64,000 bases of DNA from an uncultured Actinomycetes bacterium (GCA_963721435.1 CAVRJC010000012.1:215488-279487); one strand, 5' to 3'; counted from the stretch's first letter, positions 1 through 9,657 are shown. Notes: generated by a model from the sequence alone, not told the origin. Translations and numbers: made by a program.

Positions 1-696
1 GTCGTCGGTGGCGCCGACGGCGCGATCGCGATGGTGCGCGACATCACCGACCGCCTCGAGTCGGAGCGGCTGCTCCACGAAGCTGCCCAGGCGCTCCAAC
101 TCCTCGAAGACCGCGAGCGCATCGCGCGCGACCTTCACGATCTCGTGATCCAACGACTGTTCGCGGCCGGGATGGCCCTGCAAGCAACGATCTCGCGGCT
201 CGACGACCATGACACCGCGGAGCGCGTGAGCCGGGTCGTCGACGACCTCGACGACACGATCGGCCAGCTCCGCACGGTGATCTTCGGGCTCCAGGATCGA
301 CGCACGGAGCACTCGAGCGTCAGGAGCTCCGCGCTCGAGATCGTGGCCGAGGAGCGCGCCGCGCTGGGGTTCGAGCCGCGGATCCGGTTCGACGGCCCGG
401 TCGACTCCATCGGCGCTCCGATCGCCGAGCAGGTGCTCGCGGTGCTGCGCGAGGCCCTCTCGAACGTGGCCCGCCATGCACACGCGACCGAGGTCGACAT
501 CCACCTCGCCGCCGACGCGCACGCGATCACGCTCCGGGTCGCCGACAACGGCATCGGCGTTGCGGGCATCCCGGGAACCGGGAACGGGCTCCGCAACGCC
601 GTCGACCGTGCGGTTGCGCTGGGAGGGACCTGCGTCGTCAAACCTGCCCCGACCGGGGGGACCCACTTCGAGTGGAGCGTCGTGCCGACCAGCTGA
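1..696 (+). CDS. sensor histidine kinase, C-terminal part (5' end outside window); HisKA_3 + HATPase_c, NarL-partner (DevS/DosT-like) type
   Basis: Frame open from nt 1. H-box ERERIARDLHDLVIQRLFAAGMAL is typical of HisKA_3 kinases. ATPase boxes LSNVARHAHA, DNGIGV, GNGLRN. TGA at 694-696. Confidence 0.88.
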   Translation, partial: VVGGADGAIAMVRDITDRLESERLLHEAAQALQLLEDRERIARDLHDLVIQRLFAAGMALQATISRLDDHDTAERVSRVVDDLDDTIGQLRTVIFGLQDRRTEHSSVRSSALEIVAEERAALGFEPRIRFDGPVDSIGAPIAEQVLAVLREALSNVARHAHATEVDIHLAADAHAITLRVADNGIGVAGIPGTGNGLRNAVDRAVALGGTCVVKPAPTGGTHFEWSVVPTS

Positions 697-717
697 CGCA
701 CTCCCGTGCGAGACCTC

Positions 718-731
718 GGGACCTTGTGCCC
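718..731 (+). promoter_or_regulatory. DevR/DosR-like box 1 (GGGACCTTGTGCCC) with leaderless-type promoter of the PPOX-like gene
   Basis: Imperfect palindrome followed by 23 nt, TTGAAT (755-760), 6 nt, ATG 767. The same geometry occurs at three other sites in this window. Confidence 0.6.
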
Positions 732-766
732 TTCCCCGGTTCCGCACCACGGCGTTGAATGAACGA

Positions 767-1160
767 ATGAGCGCCGAGCGGCTTCGCGATTTGTCGGAGG
801 AGGAATGCCGCGCGCTTCTCGAGACGTCCGAGATCGGCCGGGTCGGCGTGAGCGTCCGGGCACTGCCCGCGATCATCCCGGTCCGTTACGCGATATTGGA
901 CGATCACGTCGTGTTCAGGACCTCCGGCGACACCCTCCTGGCCAAGGTCGTCGCGGACGCAATCGTCGCGTTCGAAGCCGACGCCGTCGACCGCGACGAT
1001 CTGCATGGCTGGAGTGTCCTCGTGGTGGGACGGGCCGAGTTGATCGAGCTCGAGCAGATTCGACGCGGCTCCGTTGCTGCCATGGGCCACGTCGACGGAC
1101 GACGCGTTCGTCCGCATCGCCACCGACACAATCTCCGGGCGCACATTCGCGTCGCCGTGA
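767..1160 (+). CDS. pyridoxamine 5'-phosphate oxidase (PPOX)-family flavin/deazaflavin-binding protein, apparent +1 frameshift near 1056-1066
   Basis: ATG 767. N-terminus LSEEECRALLETSEIGRVGV..PVRYAILDDHVVFRT is in one frame. The family-typical C-terminus PLLPWATSTDDAFVRIATDTISGRTFASP* is in the next frame, ending TGA 1158-1160. Track ORF 476..3292 is a read-through artefact. Confidence 0.72.
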
Positions 1161-3292
1161 CCGATGACGCGCGCGAGCACGCGGCGGTCGCTCGTTCGGT
1201 CGCGCGCCTCCTGGCGCCGTCTTCGATCGCCGTGGTCGGCGTGAGTCGAGGGGAGGGATCGATCGGACGAGGGGTCCTCACCAATCTCCTTGCCGGCCGC
1301 TTCACGGGCGCCCTGTACGCAGTGAACCCCCACGCATCCGAGATCGACGGCGTCGAGACCTTCCCCGGCGTGGTCGACATCCCGGGGCCGGTCGATCTGG
1401 CGGTGATCGCGGTCCCGGCGCACGGCGTGCTCGACGTCATCCGGCAGTGCGCGGAGAAGGGGGTGCACGGCATCGTCGTCATCTCGGGCGGCTTCGCCGA
1501 GCTCGCCGGCGGCAAGCTGCTCCAGGATCAGATCGTGGCCGTCGCCCGCGAGCACGGCATGCGGATCGTGGGCCCGAACTGTGTCGGCGTGGTCAATACG
1601 AGCCCGGCAGTGGCGATGAACGCGACATTCTCACCGGTCGCACCCGAACCAGGCCGTCTCGGTTTCGCGTCGCAGTCAGGGGGGATCGGGATCGAGCTGC
1701 TCGCGCGGGCTCACGCGTACGGGCTCGGTGTGTCGACGTTCGTCTCGCTCGGCAACAAGGCCGACGTCTCGGGCAACGACCTCTTGCAGTACTGGTCCGA
1801 AGATCCCGACACCGACGTCATCCTCCTGTACCTGGAATCGTTCGGAAACCCCGGCAAGTTCTCGCAGCTGGCCCGCGACATCTCGCTTCGCAAACCGATC
1901 ATCGCGATGAAGAGCGGGCGGACGATGGCGGGCGCACGCGGCGCGCGGTCACACACCGCGGCCCTTGCCGACGTCGACGTCGCCGTCGACGAGCTCCTCC
2001 ATCACACCGGCGTCATCCGAGTCGACACCCTCGAAGAGCTGTTCGACACCGCGTCCCTGCTGGCGCACCAACCAGTGCCCGGCGGGACGCGCGTCGCGAT
2101 CATGAGCAACGGCGGTGGGCCCGGGATCCTCGCGGCCGATGCCTGTGTCGCGGCAGGCCTCGATGTACCGGAGCTGTCGAGCGCGGTCCAGCGCCGCCTC
2201 GCCGCGATCGCGCCACCCGGCGCCGGGGTCCAGAACCCCGTCGACCTGATCGCATCGGCCGGAGCCGAGGTCTTCCGCGCCGGCGCCGAGATCCTCCTCC
2301 AGTGCGACGAGGTCGACGCACTGCTCGTGATCTACGTGTCTCCGCTCGTGACCCGGCCCGAGGACGTCGCGACCGCGCTGCTCGACGTGGCGCGCACGGA
2401 CCACGGCAAGCCGATCGCGGCCTGCTTCCTCGGGCTCGACCATCCCGCGGGCATGCTCGGCGACCGAGCTCCCAGCCCCACCGTGCCGACGTTCGCGTTC
2501 CCCGAATCGGCGGCGCGCGCGCTGGGCCGGGCGGCCCGCCTCGGCGTGTGGCGCCGCCGTCCCGCGGGGATCGTGCCCGCGCTCGAGGGCATCGATGTGG
2601 CTCACGCCCGCGCGATCGTCGCGTCGACCCTCGACTCCCATCCCGAGGGCACGTGGGCCCGGCAGGACGCGGCCACCGAGATCCTGACCGCCTTCGGCAT
2701 CCCCGTGATCAGCACCGAAGCGGCCGACACGCCCGACGCCGCGGTGGCTGCCGCCGAGCGCATCGGATACCCGGTCGCGCTCAAGGCCGCCTCCCCGGCA
2801 CTGGTGCACAAGACGGACGTCGGCGGCGTCCGTCTCGGGCTCCGGACCGGCGAAGAAGTGCGCGACGCGTTCGCGACGATGCTCGGCACGCTCGGAGACA
2901 CGATGGCTGGCGCGAACCTGCAGGCCATGGCCGACCCGGGGGTCGAGCTCATCATCGGCGTCACGCGCGACCCTCAGTTCGGCCCGCTCGTGGTGTTCGG
3001 GATGGGCGGGGTGGCCGCAGAGCTGCAACGCGACACGGCCTTGCGGCTCCCTCCACTCACCGATGTGGACGTCCACGAGATGCTCGGGTCGCTGCGGGGC
3101 TCCCCGCTGCTCTTCGGCTACCGCGGATCGCTGCCAGTCGACACCGAGGGCCTCGCCGACGTGCTCACTCGGGTGAGCCAGCTCGCCGAGGCGCTGCCCG
3201 AGCTCGTCGAACTCGACTGCAATCCCGTGATCGCCTCACCAAGTGGCGCGGTCGTCGTCGACGTCAAGCTGCGCCTGGAGCCCGCTTCATGA
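1157..3292 (+). CDS. ADP-forming acetyl/acyl-CoA synthetase family protein (CoA-binding, succinyl-CoA-synthetase-like and ATP-grasp domains)
   Basis: GTG 1157 overlaps the PPOX stop (GTGA). Motifs SIAVVGVSRGEGSIGRGVLTNL, IVGPNCVGVVNT, GNKADVSGNDLLQYW. C-terminal ATP-grasp GYPVALKAASPALVHKTDVGGVRLGL. Confidence 0.87.
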   Translation: MTDDAREHAAVARSVARLLAPSSIAVVGVSRGEGSIGRGVLTNLLAGRFTGALYAVNPHASEIDGVETFPGVVDIPGPVDLAVIAVPAHGVLDVIRQCAEKGVHGIVVISGGFAELAGGKLLQDQIVAVAREHGMRIVGPNCVGVVNTSPAVAMNATFSPVAPEPGRLGFASQSGGIGIELLARAHAYGLGVSTFVSLGNKADVSGNDLLQYWSEDPDTDVILLYLESFGNPGKFSQLARDISLRKPIIAMKSGRTMAGARGARSHTAALADVDVAVDELLHHTGVIRVDTLEELFDTASLLAHQPVPGGTRVAIMSNGGGPGILAADACVAAGLDVPELSSAVQRRLAAIAPPGAGVQNPVDLIASAGAEVFRAGAEILLQCDEVDALLVIYVSPLVTRPEDVATALLDVARTDHGKPIAACFLGLDHPAGMLGDRAPSPTVPTFAFPESAARALGRAARLGVWRRRPAGIVPALEGIDVAHARAIVASTLDSHPEGTWARQDAATEILTAFGIPVISTEAADTPDAAVAAAERIGYPVALKAASPALVHKTDVGGVRLGLRTGEEVRDAFATMLGTLGDTMAGANLQAMADPGVELIIGVTRDPQFGPLVVFGMGGVAAELQRDTALRLPPLTDVDVHEMLGSLRGSPLLFGYRGSLPVDTEGLADVLTRVSQLAEALPELVELDCNPVIASPSGAVVVDVKLRLEPAS

Positions 3293-4612
3293 GGGCCGGC
3301 TCCCATTCAGCACCGGGAGCCGCTGCCGCCCCATGTGGGTGAGGAACCAGTCACGGGCGAGATCGGCGACCTGCTCGAGCGCACCCGCTTCTTCGAACAG
3401 ATGGGTTGCGCCGCCAACCACGTCGAGCTGGTGCTCGCAGCGCAGCTGCGCGGCTGCGTCTTCGTTGAGCCGCAGCACCGTGCGGTCCTCGCCACCGACG
3501 ATCAGGAGAGTCGGCGCGACCACCGCCGCGAGCCTCGCCCCCGCGAGATCCGGTCGTCCGCCACGTGAGACGATCGCATCCACGAGTGGCTCCTCGGCCG
3601 CGGCCCACAACGCTGCGCCCGCACCGGTGCTGGCCCCGAAGTAGCCGATCGGGAGCTCGGCGGTGGCGGGCTGCGACCGCAGCCAACGAGTCGCCGCGAG
3701 GAGCCGGACCGCGAGCAGCTCGATGTCGAACACGTTCGCACGGTCGACGGCCTCCTCGGGCATGAGCAGATCGAAGAGCAACGTGCCGAGTCCCGCAGTC
3801 CGGAGATAGCGCGCGACCTGCACGTTGCGGGGGCTGTGCCGGCTGCTGCCACTGCCGTGGGCGAAGATCACGATCCCGCGTGCGGCGGTCGGGATCACGA
3901 GATGCCCGGGAAGGCGCAACGGCCCGGCCGAGACGACGACGTCGTGATCGTGCGGGAACGTCGCCGAGCCGATGCTGACGCGGCTCGCGTCGAGCAGCCG
4001 ACACACCTCTTCGTCGGTCGTCTGCGAGAAGTCGTCGTACCAGGGCCCGATGGCGAAGAACGGGCTCGGTGTGTCGAGCACCACGACCTCGTCCGCCTCG
4101 CGCGCCATCTCCTCGACGACCTCCGGAGGCGCGACGGGGGCCGCGAGCACCACTCGGCGCGCACCGTGGGCCCGCGCGATCTGCAGGGCTGCACGCGCGG
4201 TGCTCCCGGTCGCGATGCCATCGTCGACGATCAGGACGGTACGACCCTCGAGCGCGACCATCGGCGCGTCACCACGGTAGCGGCGCGCCCGACGGCTGAC
4301 CTCCAACCGTTCGCGTGCTTCCGCCTCCACGATCTCGCGTGGCTCGATCCTCGTGGCCTTGATCACGTCGTCGTTCAGCACGCGCGCGCCGCCCTCGCCG
4401 ATGGCACCCATCGCCAACTCGGGCTGGAACGGCACCCCGAGCTTGCGCACGATCATCACGTCGAGGGGCGCATGCAGCGCGCGCGCGATCGCGGCGGCCA
4501 CGGGCACTCCGCCGCGCGGGAGTGCCAAGACGACCGGTTGCTCGTCGCGCAGGGACTCGAGCTTCACCGCGAGCAGCTCCCCGGCCTCACTCCGGTTCCG
4601 GAATCGTGCCAT
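3287..4612 (-). CDS. phosphoribosyltransferase domain fused to dienelactone-hydrolase-like alpha/beta hydrolase (Rv0571c-like architecture)
   Basis: ATG 4612 preceded by GGAGG. PRTase loop VLIVDDGIATGSTA. C-terminal half VIFAHGSGSSRHSPRN..GASTGAGAAL..VGGEDR. Confidence 0.85.
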   Translation of the reverse strand: MARFRNRSEAGELLAVKLESLRDEQPVVLALPRGGVPVAAAIARALHAPLDVMIVRKLGVPFQPELAMGAIGEGGARVLNDDVIKATRIEPREIVEAEARERLEVSRRARRYRGDAPMVALEGRTVLIVDDGIATGSTARAALQIARAHGARRVVLAAPVAPPEVVEEMAREADEVVVLDTPSPFFAIGPWYDDFSQTTDEEVCRLLDASRVSIGSATFPHDHDVVVSAGPLRLPGHLVIPTAARGIVIFAHGSGSSRHSPRNVQVARYLRTAGLGTLLFDLLMPEEAVDRANVFDIELLAVRLLAATRWLRSQPATAELPIGYFGASTGAGAALWAAAEEPLVDAIVSRGGRPDLAGARLAAVVAPTLLIVGGEDRTVLRLNEDAAAQLRCEHQLDVVGGATHLFEEAGALEQVADLARDWFLTHMGRQRLPVLNGSRPS

Positions 4613-4680
4613 CGTCCGACCTCCTCGCACGCACATCGGCGGACTCCCACCATCCTCGACCCGTCCAAGTGGGCGCGACA

Positions 4681-4694
4681 GGGGCAGAGGTCCC
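4681..4694 (-). promoter_or_regulatory. DevR/DosR-like box 2 (reverse complement GGGACCTCTGCCCC) upstream of the PRTase-hydrolase gene
   Basis: On the minus strand the box is followed by 23 nt, GAGGAT (4652-4657), 6 nt, and a predicted TSS at 4645. A 33-nt leader with GGAGG then precedes ATG 4612. Confidence 0.5.
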
Positions 4695-4757
4695 ATTCTC
4701 CGCGCTTGCCCGCTCCCTGCGGCCGTCGGGCCAGCGACCCCGGTAGCATCTCGCCTC

Positions 4758-5432
4758 ATGGCCGACGGCCCGATCCGGGTGTTCCTCCTCGACGATCACG
4801 AGGTCGTGCGCCGGGGGGTGCGCGAGCTCCTCGAAGCCGAGGACGACATCGAAGTGGTCGGGGAGGCCGACACCGCGGAGCAGGCGATCAACCGGATCCC
4901 TCCGACCCGCCCCGATGTCGCCCTGCTCGACGTGCGGCTTCCCGACGGCGACGGCGTCGAGGTGTGCCGGGAGATCCGTTCGCACCATCCCGAGGTCGCC
5001 TGCCTCATGCTCACGTCGTTCTCCGACGACGAAGCGCTGCTCCAGGCGATCGTCGCCGGCGCGTCCGGCTACCTCCTCAAGCAGATCCGCGGCACCGACA
5101 TCGTCGACGCAGTACGACGCGCGTCCCGGGGCGAATCGCTGATCGACCCGGCGCTCGCCGACCGCGTGCGCGAGCGATTGCGCACGCCACCCGCCGAGGA
5201 CGAGCGGATCGCCCGCCTGACCGGGCAGGAGCGGCGCATCCTCGTGCTCATCGCCGACGGCCTGACGAACCGCCAGATCGCGGCGGAGATCCATCTCGCC
5301 GAGAAGACGGTGAAGAACTACGTGTCGAACCTGCTCGCCAAGCTCGGGATGGAACGCCGCACCCAGGCCGCGGTGTTCGCGGCGCGCCTCGCGTCCGACG
5401 CGGCGACGGCACCCGACGCTCCCGCCGACTGA
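4758..5432 (+). CDS. NarL/LuxR-family response regulator (DevR/DosR-like)
   Basis: Receiver domain IRVFLLDDHEVVRRGVRELL..DVALLDVRLPDGDG. HTH LTGQERRILVLIADGLTNRQIAAEIHLAEKTVKNYVSNLLAKLG. Confidence 0.93.
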   Translation: MADGPIRVFLLDDHEVVRRGVRELLEAEDDIEVVGEADTAEQAINRIPPTRPDVALLDVRLPDGDGVEVCREIRSHHPEVACLMLTSFSDDEALLQAIVAGASGYLLKQIRGTDIVDAVRRASRGESLIDPALADRVRERLRTPPAEDERIARLTGQERRILVLIADGLTNRQIAAEIHLAEKTVKNYVSNLLAKLGMERRTQAAVFAARLASDAATAPDAPAD

Positions 5433-5442
5433 CCCGTCGACC

Positions 5443-6258
5443 TCAGCCCTCCGCCGCGCACTCCGGCCCGACCACGAGTACCGGGCACGGGGCATGACGC
5501 ACCGTCCGCATCGACACACTCCCCAGCGCAGCACGGGAGACTCCGGAGCGCCCGTGGCTCCCGACCGCGATGATCGCCGCGCCGCCCTCGCGGACGGCCC
5601 GGATGAGCATGTCCGCGGCGTCATACCCGTCGACGATCTCGTAGTCCGTCGTGACGCCGTGGGCGGTCAGCTCGGCCGCCAACGACTCGAGACCGCCGAC
5701 GTGTGGCTCGTGCGCGCGGCCGGTGACGACGACGTCGCTCGGGCGCACGACCTCGAGGAGGTGAACGCGCCCTCCGGTGGATCGCGCGAGCTCACCGGCC
5801 GCGAGCGCGGCTCGTCGCGCGGGCTCCGACCCGTCGACGCCCACGAGCACCGTCGGTGCGGGGCTCAGTCCCCACGCCGGGTCGAGCTCGGGCCCGACCA
5901 CCATGACGGGCGTCGGGCTGTGACGCACGACGTGCTCAGCGACACTCCCGAGCACGGCACCGGCCAACGCCCCGCGGCCGTGCGTGGCCATGCACACCAG
6001 GGCATCCGGTGCCTCGGCCGCGAGGAGCACGGCTTCGGCGGGGTCTCCTTCGGGCACCAACCACGTGCGAGCGGGCCGCGCGAGGCACGCCACCTGCGCA
6101 TCGAGGTACCGGCGCGGTGCGTCCGGGCTGCCATCGCCCCAGGGCGCGCCGACCAGGACGAGGGCGGCACCCGTGCGGTCGGCGACGGCGACAGCCGGCC
6201 CGAGCGCGGTCTGCGCCCGCTCCGAGCCGTCGAGCGGCACGTACACCGTCTTGGTCAT
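5443..6258 (-). CDS. universal stress protein, tandem UspA domains
   Basis: Two Usp repeats with ATP-type motifs MATHGRGALAGAVLGSVAEHVVRHSPTPVMVV and VGSHGRSGVSRAALGSVSMRTVRHAPCPVLVV. ATG 6258 overlaps the upstream stop (ATGA). Confidence 0.9.
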   Translation of the reverse strand: MTKTVYVPLDGSERAQTALGPAVAVADRTGAALVLVGAPWGDGSPDAPRRYLDAQVACLARPARTWLVPEGDPAEAVLLAAEAPDALVCMATHGRGALAGAVLGSVAEHVVRHSPTPVMVVGPELDPAWGLSPAPTVLVGVDGSEPARRAALAAGELARSTGGRVHLLEVVRPSDVVVTGRAHEPHVGGLESLAAELTAHGVTTDYEIVDGYDAADMLIRAVREGGAAIIAVGSHGRSGVSRAALGSVSMRTVRHAPCPVLVVGPECAAEG

Positions 6259-7394
6259 CGCCGTCCTCGGCGGACTCGGGCCTTCTCTTCACGGGCCAGT
6301 CGCGTCATGAGCTGCTCGACCTCCTCGACGCGCAGGATCCCGACCACCTCGGGACCGTCCAGGACCGCGAGCGCGCGCGCCGGTGCAGCCGTCACGGACA
6401 GGAGGCATGCCTCGAGACCATCCGTGGCAGCAAGCACCGGCGCGTCGCGCTCGACGAGCTCGGCCGCCGTACCTGCCTGCGAGCCGAGCCCGACCACATC
6501 GACGTCGACGGAGTCGGCCTCGAGCAGGCCTTCGTACCCTCGGGGACCGACGACGGGGAACACCCGTTGGCTGCTCCGCCGAACCAGCTCACGGAGCTGG
6601 TCGAGATCGGCATCCACATCCACGACGCGCGGCTCGAGCAGCATCGCGTCCGCGACGCGGCGACCCTGCAGGCGAACGTGCACGATGGTCGCCGCTTCCT
6701 CCGCGGCCGCGCCGAAGTAGACGAAGACACCGATGATGACGAGCCAGACATCCCAGAACAGCCCCACCACGATGAAGGCCACGGAGACCCAGCGACCGAC
6801 GCGGGCCGCGACGTGCGTCGCCTGCTCGAGATCGAGGCGGCGCTCGAGGAGCGAGCGCAGCACCCGGCCCCCGTCGAGCGGGAACGCGGGCAGCAGGTTG
6901 AACGCGGCGACGAGCAGGTTGAACCAGAAGAGCCCGACCAGGATCGAGCCGCCGAGGAAGTCGATGGGGAGCAACGGCAGCGACAGCGCCCACGCCAGCA
7001 CCCCCGCCACGACTGCGATCCCGACACTCGCCGCGGGCCCGGCGATCGCCATCGCGAACTCGTCTCGGGGGTCCTCGGGCAGCTGCTCCAGCTTCGAGAC
7101 GCCGCCGATCGGGAGCAGCTCGATCTCGTGGACGACGGCACCACGTGGCCGTCCCACCAGGCAGTGCGCGAACTCGTGCACGAGCACGCACGCGAAGATC
7201 ACGACGAGCCACGCGACGCCGGCCAGCGCGCCCGACCCACCGGGCGCAGCGCCCGCGAGCGCGAACAGGGGGACGAGCAGGAAGAACGTGATGTGCACCC
7301 GGATCTCGATGCCCGCGATGCGCCCGATCCGGAACGAGTGTGGGATCACGTGTGGGTGACCCCGGCCCACCGAGGTCGCTCCGTTCGGCGTCAT
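6255..7394 (-). CDS. site-2-protease family (M50) zinc metalloprotease with C-terminal CBS pair (Rv2625c-like)
   Basis: HEFAHCL zinc motif, NLLPAFPLDGGR, CBS-like C-terminal half. ATG 7394 preferred over the 7493 ORF start because of the box/-10 geometry. Confidence 0.85.
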   Translation of the reverse strand: MTPNGATSVGRGHPHVIPHSFRIGRIAGIEIRVHITFFLLVPLFALAGAAPGGSGALAGVAWLVVIFACVLVHEFAHCLVGRPRGAVVHEIELLPIGGVSKLEQLPEDPRDEFAMAIAGPAASVGIAVVAGVLAWALSLPLLPIDFLGGSILVGLFWFNLLVAAFNLLPAFPLDGGRVLRSLLERRLDLEQATHVAARVGRWVSVAFIVVGLFWDVWLVIIGVFVYFGAAAEEAATIVHVRLQGRRVADAMLLEPRVVDVDADLDQLRELVRRSSQRVFPVVGPRGYEGLLEADSVDVDVVGLGSQAGTAAELVERDAPVLAATDGLEACLLSVTAAPARALAVLDGPEVVGILRVEEVEQLMTRLAREEKARVRRGRR

Positions 7395-7429
7395 GACCAG
7401 ATCCTGACCGTTCGTGGTCGCCACGCATA

Positions 7430-7443
7430 GGGGCCAAGGTCCC
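7430..7443. promoter_or_regulatory. DevR/DosR-like box 3 (GGGGCCAAGGTCCC) shared by divergent promoters
   Basis: Minus side: 23 nt, CAGGAT (rc of 7401-7406), 6 nt, ATG 7394. Plus side: 22 nt, CAGGAT (7466-7471), 6 nt, GTG 7478. Confidence 0.6.
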
Positions 7444-7477
7444 GTTCGCACAACGGATTCGGCGGCAGGATGACCCG

Positions 7478-8782
7478 GTGACCGATTCGCCAACCGGCCC
7501 GTACCACCCGAAGACGGCCAGCCGAGCCGGTCAGGCCCGTCTGCTCGGGTTGTGGGACGCCACCGCGATGGGCGTCGGCGGGATGATCGGCGGTGGGATC
7601 TTCAGCGTTCTCGGCGTCGCGATCACGCTCGCGGGCAACCTCGCGTTCGCGTGCTTCGTCCTCGGGGCACTGCTGGCCGCGGGTACCGCGTGGTCGTACG
7701 CGGGCGTGACCGCCCGGACCGGGCGCTCCGGCGGCCCGTTCGTGCAGCTCCGCGAGCAGGGGCACCCGGAGCTTGCGGGTTGGCTGCTGTGGCTGCTCGT
7801 CTTCGGCTACATGGTCGCGATGGCGGTGTACTCGTTCACGTTCGGGCGGTACGCGGCCGCCGCCTTCGGCGTCGACACCGCCGGAGCTCGGCTCCTGTCG
7901 ATCGGCATCGTCCTCGTGTTCCTGCTCGTGAACCTGCGCGGCATCCGGGTCTCGAGCCTCACCGAGGACGCGATCGTGCTCACCAAGCTCGTGATCCTCG
8001 CCGGCGTCGCCGCGATCGGCATCGGGCAGTTCGCGTCGAGCCGCTTGTCGCCGCTCGCCGACCGCGGTGTCGGCGGCCTGTTCCTCGGGGCGGCGACGGT
8101 GTTCTTCGCCTACGAAGGCTTCGAGCTCATCTCCTACGACCACGACGACATCCGCGACCCGGAGCGCACCGTCGGTCGGGCGCTCCTGCTCTCCGTCGGG
8201 ATCGTCGCCGTCATCTACATCTCCGTCACGCTCGGCGCACAGATGCTCGTGAGCAAGCACGACATCGTGGCCAGCAAGGAGATCGCATTCGCCGTAGTCG
8301 GCGAAGCGGCCCTGGGTTCGTTCGGCCGGTGGGCCGCGATCGCCGGTGCAGTGCTCGCGACCGGCTCGGCCATCAACGCGACGTTGTTCTCCACCGCCCG
8401 GCTCGTCCGCGACGCGAGCGCGTCCGGCGAGCTCCCGGCCGCGCTCGGCCGGGAGAAGCGCGGTCTGCCCATCGCGGCGCTCGCGGCGATCGCGCTGGCG
8501 GGCGCGAGCATGGCCATGCTGCCGGGCATCACCGAGGTGATCGCGTTCGGCTCGGGCGCGTTCCTGGCCGTCTACACGCTCGTCAACTTCCTGCAGGCCC
8601 GCACCGCGCCCCGCCGTGTCCAACGCGCCGTCGCCTGGGCCAGCGCGGGCGGTGCCGCGGCCGCGATCGGCGTCCTCGTCGTCGAGCTCGCGCGTGACGA
8701 CGAGCGCGGCCTCGTGATCCTCGTGGCCCTGACCGCGTCGTTGGCGGTCGCCCGCCTGCTGTTCGTCCGGCACCGGTCCTGA
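7478..8782 (+). CDS. APC-superfamily amino acid/polyamine permease
   Basis: GTG 7478. LLGLWDATAMGVGGMIGGGIFSVLG signature. About 12 hydrophobic segments. Confidence 0.87.
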   Translation: MTDSPTGPYHPKTASRAGQARLLGLWDATAMGVGGMIGGGIFSVLGVAITLAGNLAFACFVLGALLAAGTAWSYAGVTARTGRSGGPFVQLREQGHPELAGWLLWLLVFGYMVAMAVYSFTFGRYAAAAFGVDTAGARLLSIGIVLVFLLVNLRGIRVSSLTEDAIVLTKLVILAGVAAIGIGQFASSRLSPLADRGVGGLFLGAATVFFAYEGFELISYDHDDIRDPERTVGRALLLSVGIVAVIYISVTLGAQMLVSKHDIVASKEIAFAVVGEAALGSFGRWAAIAGAVLATGSAINATLFSTARLVRDASASGELPAALGREKRGLPIAALAAIALAGASMAMLPGITEVIAFGSGAFLAVYTLVNFLQARTAPRRVQRAVAWASAGGAAAAIGVLVVELARDDERGLVILVALTASLAVARLLFVRHRS

Positions 8783-8783
8783 C

Positions 8784-8797
8784 GGGACCTTCGCCCC
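8784..8797 (+). promoter_or_regulatory. DevR/DosR-like box 4 (GGGACCTTCGCCCC) with leaderless-type promoter of the second USP gene
   Basis: Followed by 23 nt, CAGAAT (8821-8826), 6 nt, ATG 8833. Starts 2 nt after the permease stop. Confidence 0.6.
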
Positions 8798-8832
8798 TAC
8801 ACGATGCTCGGCGCGTCGACCAGAATGACGTC

Positions 8833-9657
8833 ATGGTCGCCGACTCGATCCCGAAGACCGTGGTGGTGCCGCTCGACGGCTCCGAGTTCGCGTTGCGCGC
8901 GGTCTCGGTGGCGGCGGACCTCGCGGGAAGCTTCGATGCCGATCTCGTTCTGATGACCACCCCGCTCACTGACGACGAGGAGTTGCGCGACATCCCGCCG
9001 GCCTGGCTCGCTGAGGCCGCGAACGGGTGCGGTTACGCGCGCGTCCAGACGGTGTTGGCCCAGGACGACCACGCGGGTGCGGCCGTCGCCGACCTGGTCG
9101 CGTGGATGCCCAATGCCGCCGTGTGCATGTCGACGCACGGTCATGGTCGTGTCGTCTCCGCCGCGCTCGGCAGCGTGGCCAACGACGTCGTCCGTCGCGT
9201 CGCCACGCCCGTCGTGCTCCTCGGGCCGGACTACGTCGACGAGCCGAACGACAACGGCTGGATGGTCGTCGCCCACGACGGCTCCGAATCCGCCGACGCG
9301 ATCCTCGCTCCGGCGCGCGCCTGGGCGCGCGCGCTCGGGCTGCTCGTGACGGTGGTCCACGTGTTGCACCCACTCGACGTCCCGGGCGCGCAGGCACCGA
9401 CCAAGGACATCGACGACGTGATCGAGTACTTCGGCGAGGGCACCACGGCGCGCGTGGTCCGCAGCTCGTATCCCGCCGGCGCGATCCGCGACGTCGTGGA
9501 CGATGTTCGCCCGTTGCTGGTTGCGATGAGCACACACGGCCGCACCGGTTTGGCCCGGATCACCCTGGGCAGCGTCGCCACCGACGTCGTGCACTCGTGC
9601 CCGCGCCCGTTGCTGGTGAGCCGGCCTGCCGCGCTCGGCGATCCAGGCGGAACGTAG
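8833..9657 (+). CDS. universal stress protein, tandem UspA domains
   Basis: STHGHGRVVSAALGSVANDVVRRVATPVVLL and STHGRTGLARITLGSVATDVVHSCPRPLLV. Confidence 0.9.
   Translation: MVADSIPKTVVVPLDGSEFALRAVSVAADLAGSFDADLVLMTTPLTDDEELRDIPPAWLAEAANGCGYARVQTVLAQDDHAGAAVADLVAWMPNAAVCMSTHGHGRVVSAALGSVANDVVRRVATPVVLLGPDYVDEPNDNGWMVVAHDGSESADAILAPARAWARALGLLVTVVHVLHPLDVPGAQAPTKDIDDVIEYFGEGTTARVVRSSYPAGAIRDVVDDVRPLLVAMSTHGRTGLARITLGSVATDVVHSCPRPLLVSRPAALGDPGGT

Follow-up and report, generated by a model that had tools for sequence, protein, structure and literature searches.

A predicted DevR/DosR-type regulon island with fixed promoter geometry in an Acidimicrobiia-like bacterium

We analysed a 64-kb stretch of DNA from an uncultured Actinomycetes bacterium (GCA_963721435.1 CAVRJC010000012.1:215488-279487), hereafter the window, in which an initial annotation had described an island defined by boxes at 718-8797 as a DevR/DosR-type regulon: a DevR/DosR-like response regulator gene, its presumed target genes and four copies of a 14-nt imperfect palindrome, or box, in front of them. 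The island opens with the 3′ part of a sensor histidine kinase gene carrying HisKA_3 and HATPase_c domains (1..696, plus strand; Pfam), whose N-terminus lies outside the window. It is followed on the plus strand by a PPOX-like gene (Pyridox_ox_2; 767..1160), which is frameshifted and predicted to be leaderless, and by an ADP-forming acyl-CoA synthetase gene (CoA_binding, Succ_CoA_lig and ATP-grasp_5; 1157..3292), the second gene of the box 1 operon. On the minus strand is a gene for a fusion of a phosphoribosyltransferase (PRTase) and an alpha/beta-hydrolase of dienelactone-hydrolase-like (DLH) type (3287..4612; Pfam), with a 33-nt leader containing GGAGG. The regulator gene (4758..5432, plus strand) encodes a NarL-family protein with REC and GerE domains, the presumed box-binding protein. 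Beyond it, on the minus strand, are a peptidase M50 membrane protease gene (6255..7394; Pfam), predicted leaderless, and the gene for a tandem universal stress protein (USP), USP1 (5443..6258), which overlaps the M50 stop codon by 4 nt as in an operon. The plus strand then carries an APC-family amino-acid permease gene (7478..8782), predicted leaderless, and the gene for a second tandem USP, USP2 (8833..9657), likewise predicted leaderless. The permease starts with GTG, and GTG 7478 is the sole in-frame start before the first conserved segment. No nitroreductase, hspX-type or nitrate genes are present in the island, and no Rfam families at gathering score and no tRNA genes were found across the window (1-64000).

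The four boxes lie where the initial annotation had placed them, each intergenic and each oriented to its downstream gene: box 1 (718..731, plus strand; GGGACCTTGTGCCC, then T), box 2 (4681..4694, minus strand; GGGACCTCTGCCCC, then T), box 3 (7430..7443, minus strand; GGGACCTTGGCCCC), which would be common to the divergent M50 and permease promoters, and box 4 (8784..8797, plus strand; GGGACCTTCGCCCC, then T), which begins 1 nt past the permease stop codon. Their distal halves read GGGACC and their proximal halves GGGGC(C/G/A), and the eight core positions are matched at 8/8 by boxes 2-4 and at 7/8 by box 1. The pattern GGGACCTNNNNCCC has 4 matches in the 64 kb against 0.18 expected, a number reached in 0 of 100 shuffles. 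This pattern is post hoc, being drawn from the boxes of the initial annotation, and we therefore added a literature consensus, the 15-mer GGGACTTNNGNCCCT given for M. smegmatis DosR (PMC6448022). Allowing at most 1 mismatch, it matched exactly boxes 2, 3 and 4, all gene-ward (3 vs. 0.21 expected; 0/100 shuffles reached 3). The one mismatch of boxes 2-4, read together with their next T, is C for T at position 6, and the consensus has a left-right asymmetry like theirs; M. smegmatis belongs to a different Actinomycetota class from the window organism. The boxes therefore match the DevR/OsdR/DosR consensus family, in keeping with the likeness to the M. tuberculosis DevR box that had been proposed for them. 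Box 1 is the weakest copy, with 2 mismatches to the published consensus. At that threshold the window holds 5 matches against 4.2 expected, so that box 1 is not significant by sequence alone and its support is mainly positional.

Some similar sequences in the window were considered and set apart from the boxes. Full-core matches at 2524, 11389 and 62342 were rejected, as they lie within long open reading frames (ORFs) and lack promoter geometry downstream. The inverted repeat CGCAC-TCCC-GTGCG (697-710) stands at the location of a secondary box for box 1; its RNA folding is that of shuffled sequences (z = 0), and it is not a Dev box and does not make a convincing terminator. Separately, an additional inverted half-site, GGTCC-TGAC-GGGACC (8775-8789), was seen directly 5′ of box 4, within the last bases of the permease gene.

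When the four promoters are aligned on a common anchor, each box is followed by exactly 23 nt, a hexamer and 6 nt. The putative -10 hexamers are TTGAAT for box 1 (755..760, plus strand), GAGGAT for box 2 (4652..4657, minus strand), CAGGAT for box 3 and the M50-USP1 operon (7401..7406, minus strand) and CAGAAT for box 4 (8821..8826, plus strand). The endpoint of this spacing is the start codon for boxes 1, 3 and 4 (ATG 767, ATG 7394 on the minus strand and ATG 8833, respectively), and for box 2 it is a predicted transcription start site (TSS) at 4645 on the minus strand, 33 nt 5′ of ATG 4612, which has its own GGAGG. The core ends 35 nt before the predicted TSS, or 33 nt when counted from the 18-bp Dev box, and the box centre falls at -42.5. 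A scan of 600-9000 found no sigma-70 consensus promoter, as expected for activator-dependent promoters. The layout bears out what the initial annotation had read from it, namely the 23-nt, hexamer and 6-nt spacing at all four boxes, three leaderless starts with a fourth start at 4645 ahead of a GGAGG leader, and a box centre about 42.5 nt 5′ of the TSS, the start sites being predicted ones. Its suggestion that this rigid geometry was a new inference did not hold, as the same class II geometry is already published for DevR: in all seven M. tuberculosis promoters with a mapped TSS, 33 or 34 nt separate the end of the proximal 18-bp Dev box from that site (PMC3177182, Table 1). The predicted geometry of the window thus equals the one measured for M. 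tuberculosis DevR.

The PRTase-hydrolase gene offers an alternative in-frame start, ATG 4634-4636 on the minus strand, 24 nt 5′ of ATG 4612, which would add 8 residues and leave a 9-nt leader lacking a Shine-Dalgarno sequence. Alignments to homologues begin at residue 4, and ATG 4612, preceded by GGAGG and 7 nt, is the preferred start.

We next compared the regulator (4758-5432) with proteins of known structure. Its best solved relative is M. tuberculosis DevR (PDB 3c3w; 238 bits, E = 7e-70), followed by VraR and NarL at no more than 165 bits. Over 206 residues aligned without gaps, the two proteins are 55% identical, rising to 74% within the DNA-binding domain. The regulator keeps the phospho-acceptor D54 along with T82 and K104. 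Also kept are K179, K182 and N183, which read the bases, and the residues that contact the backbone (Q153, N167, T180, Y184, R196 and R197); K168 is replaced by R. In the cryo-electron microscopy (cryo-EM) structure of DosR with RNA polymerase (2026), K179, K182 and N183 read the GGGACT/TGTCCC motifs (PMC13486717). As the regulator keeps the DNA-reading residues of DosR, the same DNA specificity is expected. Against NCBIfam, the regulator reached no DevR-specific equivalog model; the best model was MadR, below its cut-off. In front of the regulator gene itself, a canonical TAGCAT (4744-4749), 8 nt before the ATG, is the likely -10 element, and autoregulation is not evident. We also observed a Dev-like sequence, GGGCCAGCGACCCC (4728-4741), which matches 7/8 core positions and ends 2 nt 5′ of the TAGCAT. 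It could be an autoregulatory operator; sites scoring 7/8 occur about once per kb, and it is at chance level.

To provide an independent test, we assembled 80 related loci (1.4 Mb), picked solely by regulator kinship and limited to one genome per species. The nearest relatives of the regulator come from metagenome-assembled genomes of Acidimicrobiia and are at most 86% identical; we therefore take the window to derive from an Acidimicrobiia-like organism whose species is absent from the compared genomes. Genes for USPs, M50 proteases, acyl-CoA synthetases, PPOX-like proteins and PRTase-hydrolases recur around the regulator in these loci, in shuffled order. We scanned the loci with the generic symmetric core GGGNCNNNNGNCCC alone. 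A NANNNT exactly 23 nt past the core was found at 53 oriented sites, compared with about 7.5 at neighbouring gaps. The start codon of an ORF of at least 100 codons stood at offset 49 at 21 sites vs. a background of 4.5 (P = 1e-8), and an offset-49 start codon combined with NANNNT at -12..-7 occurred at 15 sites vs. 0.15 (P = 4e-25). Genes with this offset-49 geometry include those for PPOX-like proteins, HTH-PPOX fusions, a CMD-family protein, an ABC ATPase and the regulator itself.

Individual orthologues show which parts of the promoters are retained. The USP2 promoters of two loci (L001 and L002) keep the box, spacing, -10 hexamer and leaderless ATG with a diverged spacer, and the PPOX-like genes of five loci (L006, L016, L020, L021 and L028) keep the box, -10 hexamer and leaderless start, again with diverged spacers. 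In a further locus (L036), the promoter of the PRTase-hydrolase orthologue resembles that of the window, with CAAGGT 23 nt past a box and a leader of 28-31 nt. The hexamers found at gap 23 in the relatives (GACACT, CACGCT, GATGAT, CAGAAT, TAGCGT and others) have in common only A at position 2 and T at position 6. Most begin with G or C and not with T, and a G follows the -10 hexamer in 38/52 sites. Such a weak [G/C]ANNNT-G element would fit dependence on an activator. A second box at -22 is present in about 11/53 of the related promoters.

These promoters also share an orientation. Counts were made over 52 distinct oriented sites, many of them mutually orthologous, which lowers the effective number. 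Of these sites, 40/52 have A at position 4, and the mirror position is T in only 4/52. GGGAC occurs in the distal half only at 36 sites and in the proximal half only at 0 (p = 3e-11), with no counter-example. The base after the box is T in 49/52, followed by G or A, and the mirror base 5′ of the box is not conserved. The proximal half could be written GGG[C/T/G]C, a near-invariant T and then G/A, and would merge with the -35 region. All four boxes in the window obey this rule, with the GGGAC half distal and a T after the proximal half.

A side observation in the related loci concerns a 226-aa fusion protein of HTH_3 and Pyridox_ox_2 domains, conserved in seven Acidimicrobiaceae loci (L025:3924-4604, L027:1844-2524, L041:3907-4587, L045:3868-4548, L052:3923-4603, L055:3896-4576 and L058:3875-4555). 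Each of the seven genes is preceded by a Dev box, 23 nt, CAGAAT or CAGGAT, 6 nt and a start codon. It is possible that this protein is a second-tier regulator of the regulon.

Box 3 was examined on both of its sides. On the far side from the M50 gene lie 22 nt, CAGGAT (7466..7471, plus strand), 6 nt and the permease GTG 7478, which is thus 34 nt past the box. The initial annotation had proposed that this one box serves two divergent promoters and had offered the idea as new. The layout is as described and is kept in the locus with the nearest permease orthologue (L086; 89%), where the M50 gene, one box and the permease gene are retained and the spacers have diverged; there, the M50 side has 24 nt, CAGGGT, 6 nt and ATG, and the permease side has 23 nt, CAGGAT, 6 nt and GTG. 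Bidirectional use itself is not proven by this arrangement, and the idea of divergent DevR promoters is not new, as they are known in M. tuberculosis. The only case documented for DevR, tgs1-Rv3131, has two boxes, in contrast to the single box 3. Elsewhere, for example with E. coli CRP, a single site is known to support class II activation of divergent promoters. As there, one dimer site would lie about 41.5 to 42.5 bp from two opposed TSSs, which at box 3 are predicted; the protein family differs.

In the two nearest genomes (L001 and L002), the M50 and USP2 genes stand next to each other in divergent orientation, with no permease gene between them. Two opposed boxes 22 bp apart occupy the shared region (L001:11770-11860 and L002:3445-3535), with GTGACCTTGTCCCC on one strand and GGGACCTTGT[C/G]CCC on the opposite one, and each box has a -10 hexamer of its own 23 nt away and a leaderless start of its own. 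In the window and L086, the permease gene sits between the equivalents of these opposed boxes, suggesting that it may have been inserted exactly between the two. More distant permease orthologues are in other contexts and lack a box. A single box with -10 hexamers on both sides was rejected as a recurrent design, being found at 2/196 sites in the 80 loci, which is the chance level. The idea of a bidirectional box 3 therefore rests on the window and L086, and from these two loci a lineage-specific bidirectional use is plausible.

Only the last 231 residues of the kinase are in the window. This fragment is nearest to PAS-PAS-HisKA_3 kinases (L001:13681-16224, L002:5248-6852, L012:12833-14989 and L006:12102-13559), with 51-52% identity and an alignment that extends ahead of HisKA_3. 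Some of these relatives weakly match the “diguanylate cyclase-like sensor” PAS model. Elsewhere in Acidimicrobiia, the regulator shares an operon with a DevS-like kinase of GAF-GAF type (e.g., L016:7987-9999), which the fragment matches in the catalytic core alone (46%). Two sensor types thus seem, from these comparisons, to feed DevR-like regulators in Acidimicrobiia. Beyond this fragment, the window holds no other kinase of its type.

The closest parallel to the island is the DevR regulon of M. tuberculosis (tgs1-Rv3131, hspX, fdxA, Rv3134c and narK2-Rv1738), with which it shares a GGGAC-type inverted repeat, the position of the proximal box, poor -35 regions and divergent promoters, and, in domain architecture, USPs, an M50-USP pair (Rv2625c-Rv2624c) and a PRTase (Rv0571c). 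The primary (P) box of tgs1 is centred at -42.5 with its partner at -63.5, and in the cryo-EM complex the centre of the hspX box is at about -43.5, with a suboptimal -35 adjoining the box. The distance from box to ATG is 33 nt for Rv0571c, 34 for Rv2627c and 35 for fdxA (PMC3177182), and these three genes are probably leaderless too. The systems differ in that the M. tuberculosis half-sites are near-symmetric (GGGACT/AGTCCC), whereas the window has GGGACC distally and GGGGC(C/G/A) proximally. Unlike its counterpart, the window regulator is encoded by a monocistronic gene that stands 4 kb away from the kinase gene and has no class II box, and the island lacks the nitroreductase, hspX and nitrate genes. 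Many mycobacteria and other actinomycetes are known to have homologues of DosR/DosS (PMC11876180), and our literature search found no paper linking DosR with Acidimicrobiia.

A second parallel is S. coelicolor OsdR/OsdK (SCO0204/SCO0203; PMC5069765). OsdR has the consensus AGGGCCGATCGGCCCT, and its predicted sites include AGGGACCTTCGGCCCC, which is almost identical to box 4. Around this DevR orthologue, USP, PPOX and redox genes likewise form a local island, with OsdR sites at -47 to -53 from the start codon in five genes; the PPOX gene SCO0214 has its site at -50, the same offset as in the window, and leaderless use of the geometry is implied. OsdR differs in having the half-site GGGCCG on both sides, an autoregulated osdR-osdK operon and a regulon reaching developmental genes. 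The window boxes are intermediate between the OsdR consensus and the M. tuberculosis half-site GGGACT. In gene content, the parallel with the DevR and OsdR regulons drawn by the initial annotation stands at the domain level for the tandem USPs, the M50 and USP pair, the PRTase-hydrolase and the PPOX-like protein (SCO0214); it falters at the CBS pair, for which the C-terminal signal of the M50 protein is weak, and at the kinase, which is nearest to the PAS-PAS type.

Considering all of these results, the four boxes are likely sites for a dimer of the DevR/DosR-family regulator encoded at 4758-5432, which would activate transcription from -42.5. The 55% identity to DevR, the conserved residues, the consensus matches, the promoter geometry and the spacing across the 80 loci all support a DevR/DosR-type regulon island. 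As we picture it, a sensor kinase, probably the one ending at 1-696, would phosphorylate the regulator, and the phosphorylated dimer would bind each box with its centre 42.5 bp 5′ of the start site, directly upstream of a poor -35 region. There, like M. tuberculosis DosR, for which this has been shown, it would act as a class II activator and bring in RNA polymerase, and transcription would begin 6 nt past a weak [G/C]ANNNT -10 element. The predicted mRNA is leaderless in three units, or four with the permease, the TSS being the first base of the start codon. The units switched on would be the PPOX-like gene with the ADP-forming acyl-CoA synthetase gene, the PRTase-hydrolase gene, the M50 and USP genes, the amino-acid permease gene and the second USP gene. 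Binding, activation and start sites are what we infer from the sequence, and a hypoxia or redox signal would follow by analogy with the known systems, an analogy weakened by the type of kinase.

Several observations weigh against this interpretation. Promoters regulated by DevR in M. tuberculosis all have 2-4 tandem boxes and none works with one site, whereas each window promoter has one recognisable box: when offsets of -30 to -14 were scored 5′ of each box, no second tandem box reached 5/8 or more at -21/-22. Many secondary sites in M. tuberculosis are cryptic and known from footprinting only, and sites of such low similarity may escape sequence scoring. The regulator gene has no box at class II distance, the centre of box 2 being about 70 bp from its start. 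As far as visible, the kinase is not of the type of DevS and DosT, which are GAF-GAF haem sensors; the fragment is PAS-like, and the signal may differ. Finally, A at position 2 is the defining base of actinobacterial -10 elements, and the weak box 1 is followed by TTGAAT, which lacks this -11 A; no ANNNT was found within -13..-6 of ATG 767.

Regarding the direction of regulation, the regulator might bind the boxes as a repressor, blocking RNA polymerase at -35 until released. A site abutting the -35 region suits repression as well as activation, and the GGGCCAGCGACCCC site at 4728-4741 overlaps the putative TAGCAT promoter of the regulator. However, the latter site is at chance level, every characterised relative (DevR and OsdR) activates from exactly this position, and the poor -35 regions together with mostly poor -10 hexamers, in which G or C replaces T at position 1, fit activator dependence. 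We consider repression very unlikely. Still less probable is that the hexamers GAGGAT and CAGGAT are Shine-Dalgarno-like, with TSSs farther upstream and the box not at -42.5. An AGGA does lie 7 nt before ATG 7394 and GTG 7478, a workable distance for ribosome binding, but the box 2 hexamer keeps the same 23 nt and is 39 nt from an ATG having its own GGAGG. Moreover, CAGAAT and TTGAAT are not Shine-Dalgarno-like, the hexamers of the relatives keep only A2 and T6, and the distance from box to hexamer reproduces the distance from box to TSS measured in M. tuberculosis.

A further alternative, to which we give lower likelihood again, is that the boxes belong to another factor, such as an alternative sigma factor reading them as -35 elements or an unlinked regulator, and that the DevR-like neighbour is coincidental. 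Some extracytoplasmic function (ECF) sigma factors recognise GGGAC-like -35 elements, which counts in favour of this alternative. However, 23 nt lie between the hexamer and the box end and 31 nt between it and the GGGACC half, distances too long for a -35/-10 pair; the box forms an inverted repeat that fits the DevR/OsdR consensus; and boxes with this spacing cluster around DevR-like genes in loci chosen by the regulator. Finally, the idea that the boxes are chance similarities in a G+C-rich genome has next to no probability: box 1 alone is not significant (5 vs. 4.2 expected at up to 2 mismatches), but a chance origin of boxes 2-4 is refuted by 0/100 shuffles, the equal spacing and conservation in other genomes, and all four copies are intergenic and gene-ward.

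Retaining activation by the DevR-like regulator as the preferred explanation, we suggest, as a proposal that we hold to be somewhat more doubtful than probable, that the Acidimicrobiia DevR promoter is a minimal, orientation-locked element: one asymmetric box, a weak [G/C]ANNNT exactly 23 nt away and a leaderless start, at which, unlike in M. tuberculosis, a single dimer would suffice and from which one box could fire two opposed promoters. This promoter design and the sharing of one box may extend the known system modestly.

We also characterized the first gene of the box 1 operon. Without correction of the sequence, 767-3292 reads as a single apparent PPOX-synthetase ORF of 841 aa. We rejected a PPOX-synthetase fusion protein in favour of a frameshifted PPOX gene and a separate synthetase gene, based on Pfam, frame analysis, G+C content at third codon positions (GC3) and tblastn with homologues. 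GC3 switches frame near 1040, and the in-frame peptide past approximately 1040, RRVRPHRHRHNLRAH, looks out of frame. PPOX homologues align with their N-terminal 90 residues in the frame of 767 and their C-terminal 30 (RFDAAPLLPWATSTDDAFVRIATDTISGR) in the next frame, which locates the frameshift between 1044 and 1058. The frameshifted PPOX gene ends at TGA 1158-1160, overlapping the synthetase GTG 1157 (GTGA). In relatives, PPOX and synthetase are separate genes, and the synthetase relatives align from residue ~135 of the apparent fused ORF. Either an indel introduced by sequencing or a genuine pseudogene would account for the frameshift.

Specialists would expect the main result, a further example of a known system. 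What it adds is a DevR/DosR-type module, with regulator, boxes and M. tuberculosis geometry, in Acidimicrobiia, a class of Actinomycetota that is deep-branching and for the most part uncultured. The compact natural promoters, with one box, one -10 element and no leader, would be suited to asking if one DevR dimer suffices and if orientation matters. The predicted targets, namely USPs, a permease, an intramembrane protease and an ADP-forming acyl-CoA synthetase able to produce ATP from acyl-CoA, offer ideas on how these aerobes might survive low oxygen. The presence of such a module in Acidimicrobiia would support seeing the dormancy regulon as an ancient adaptation to the environment and not as a pathogen trait.

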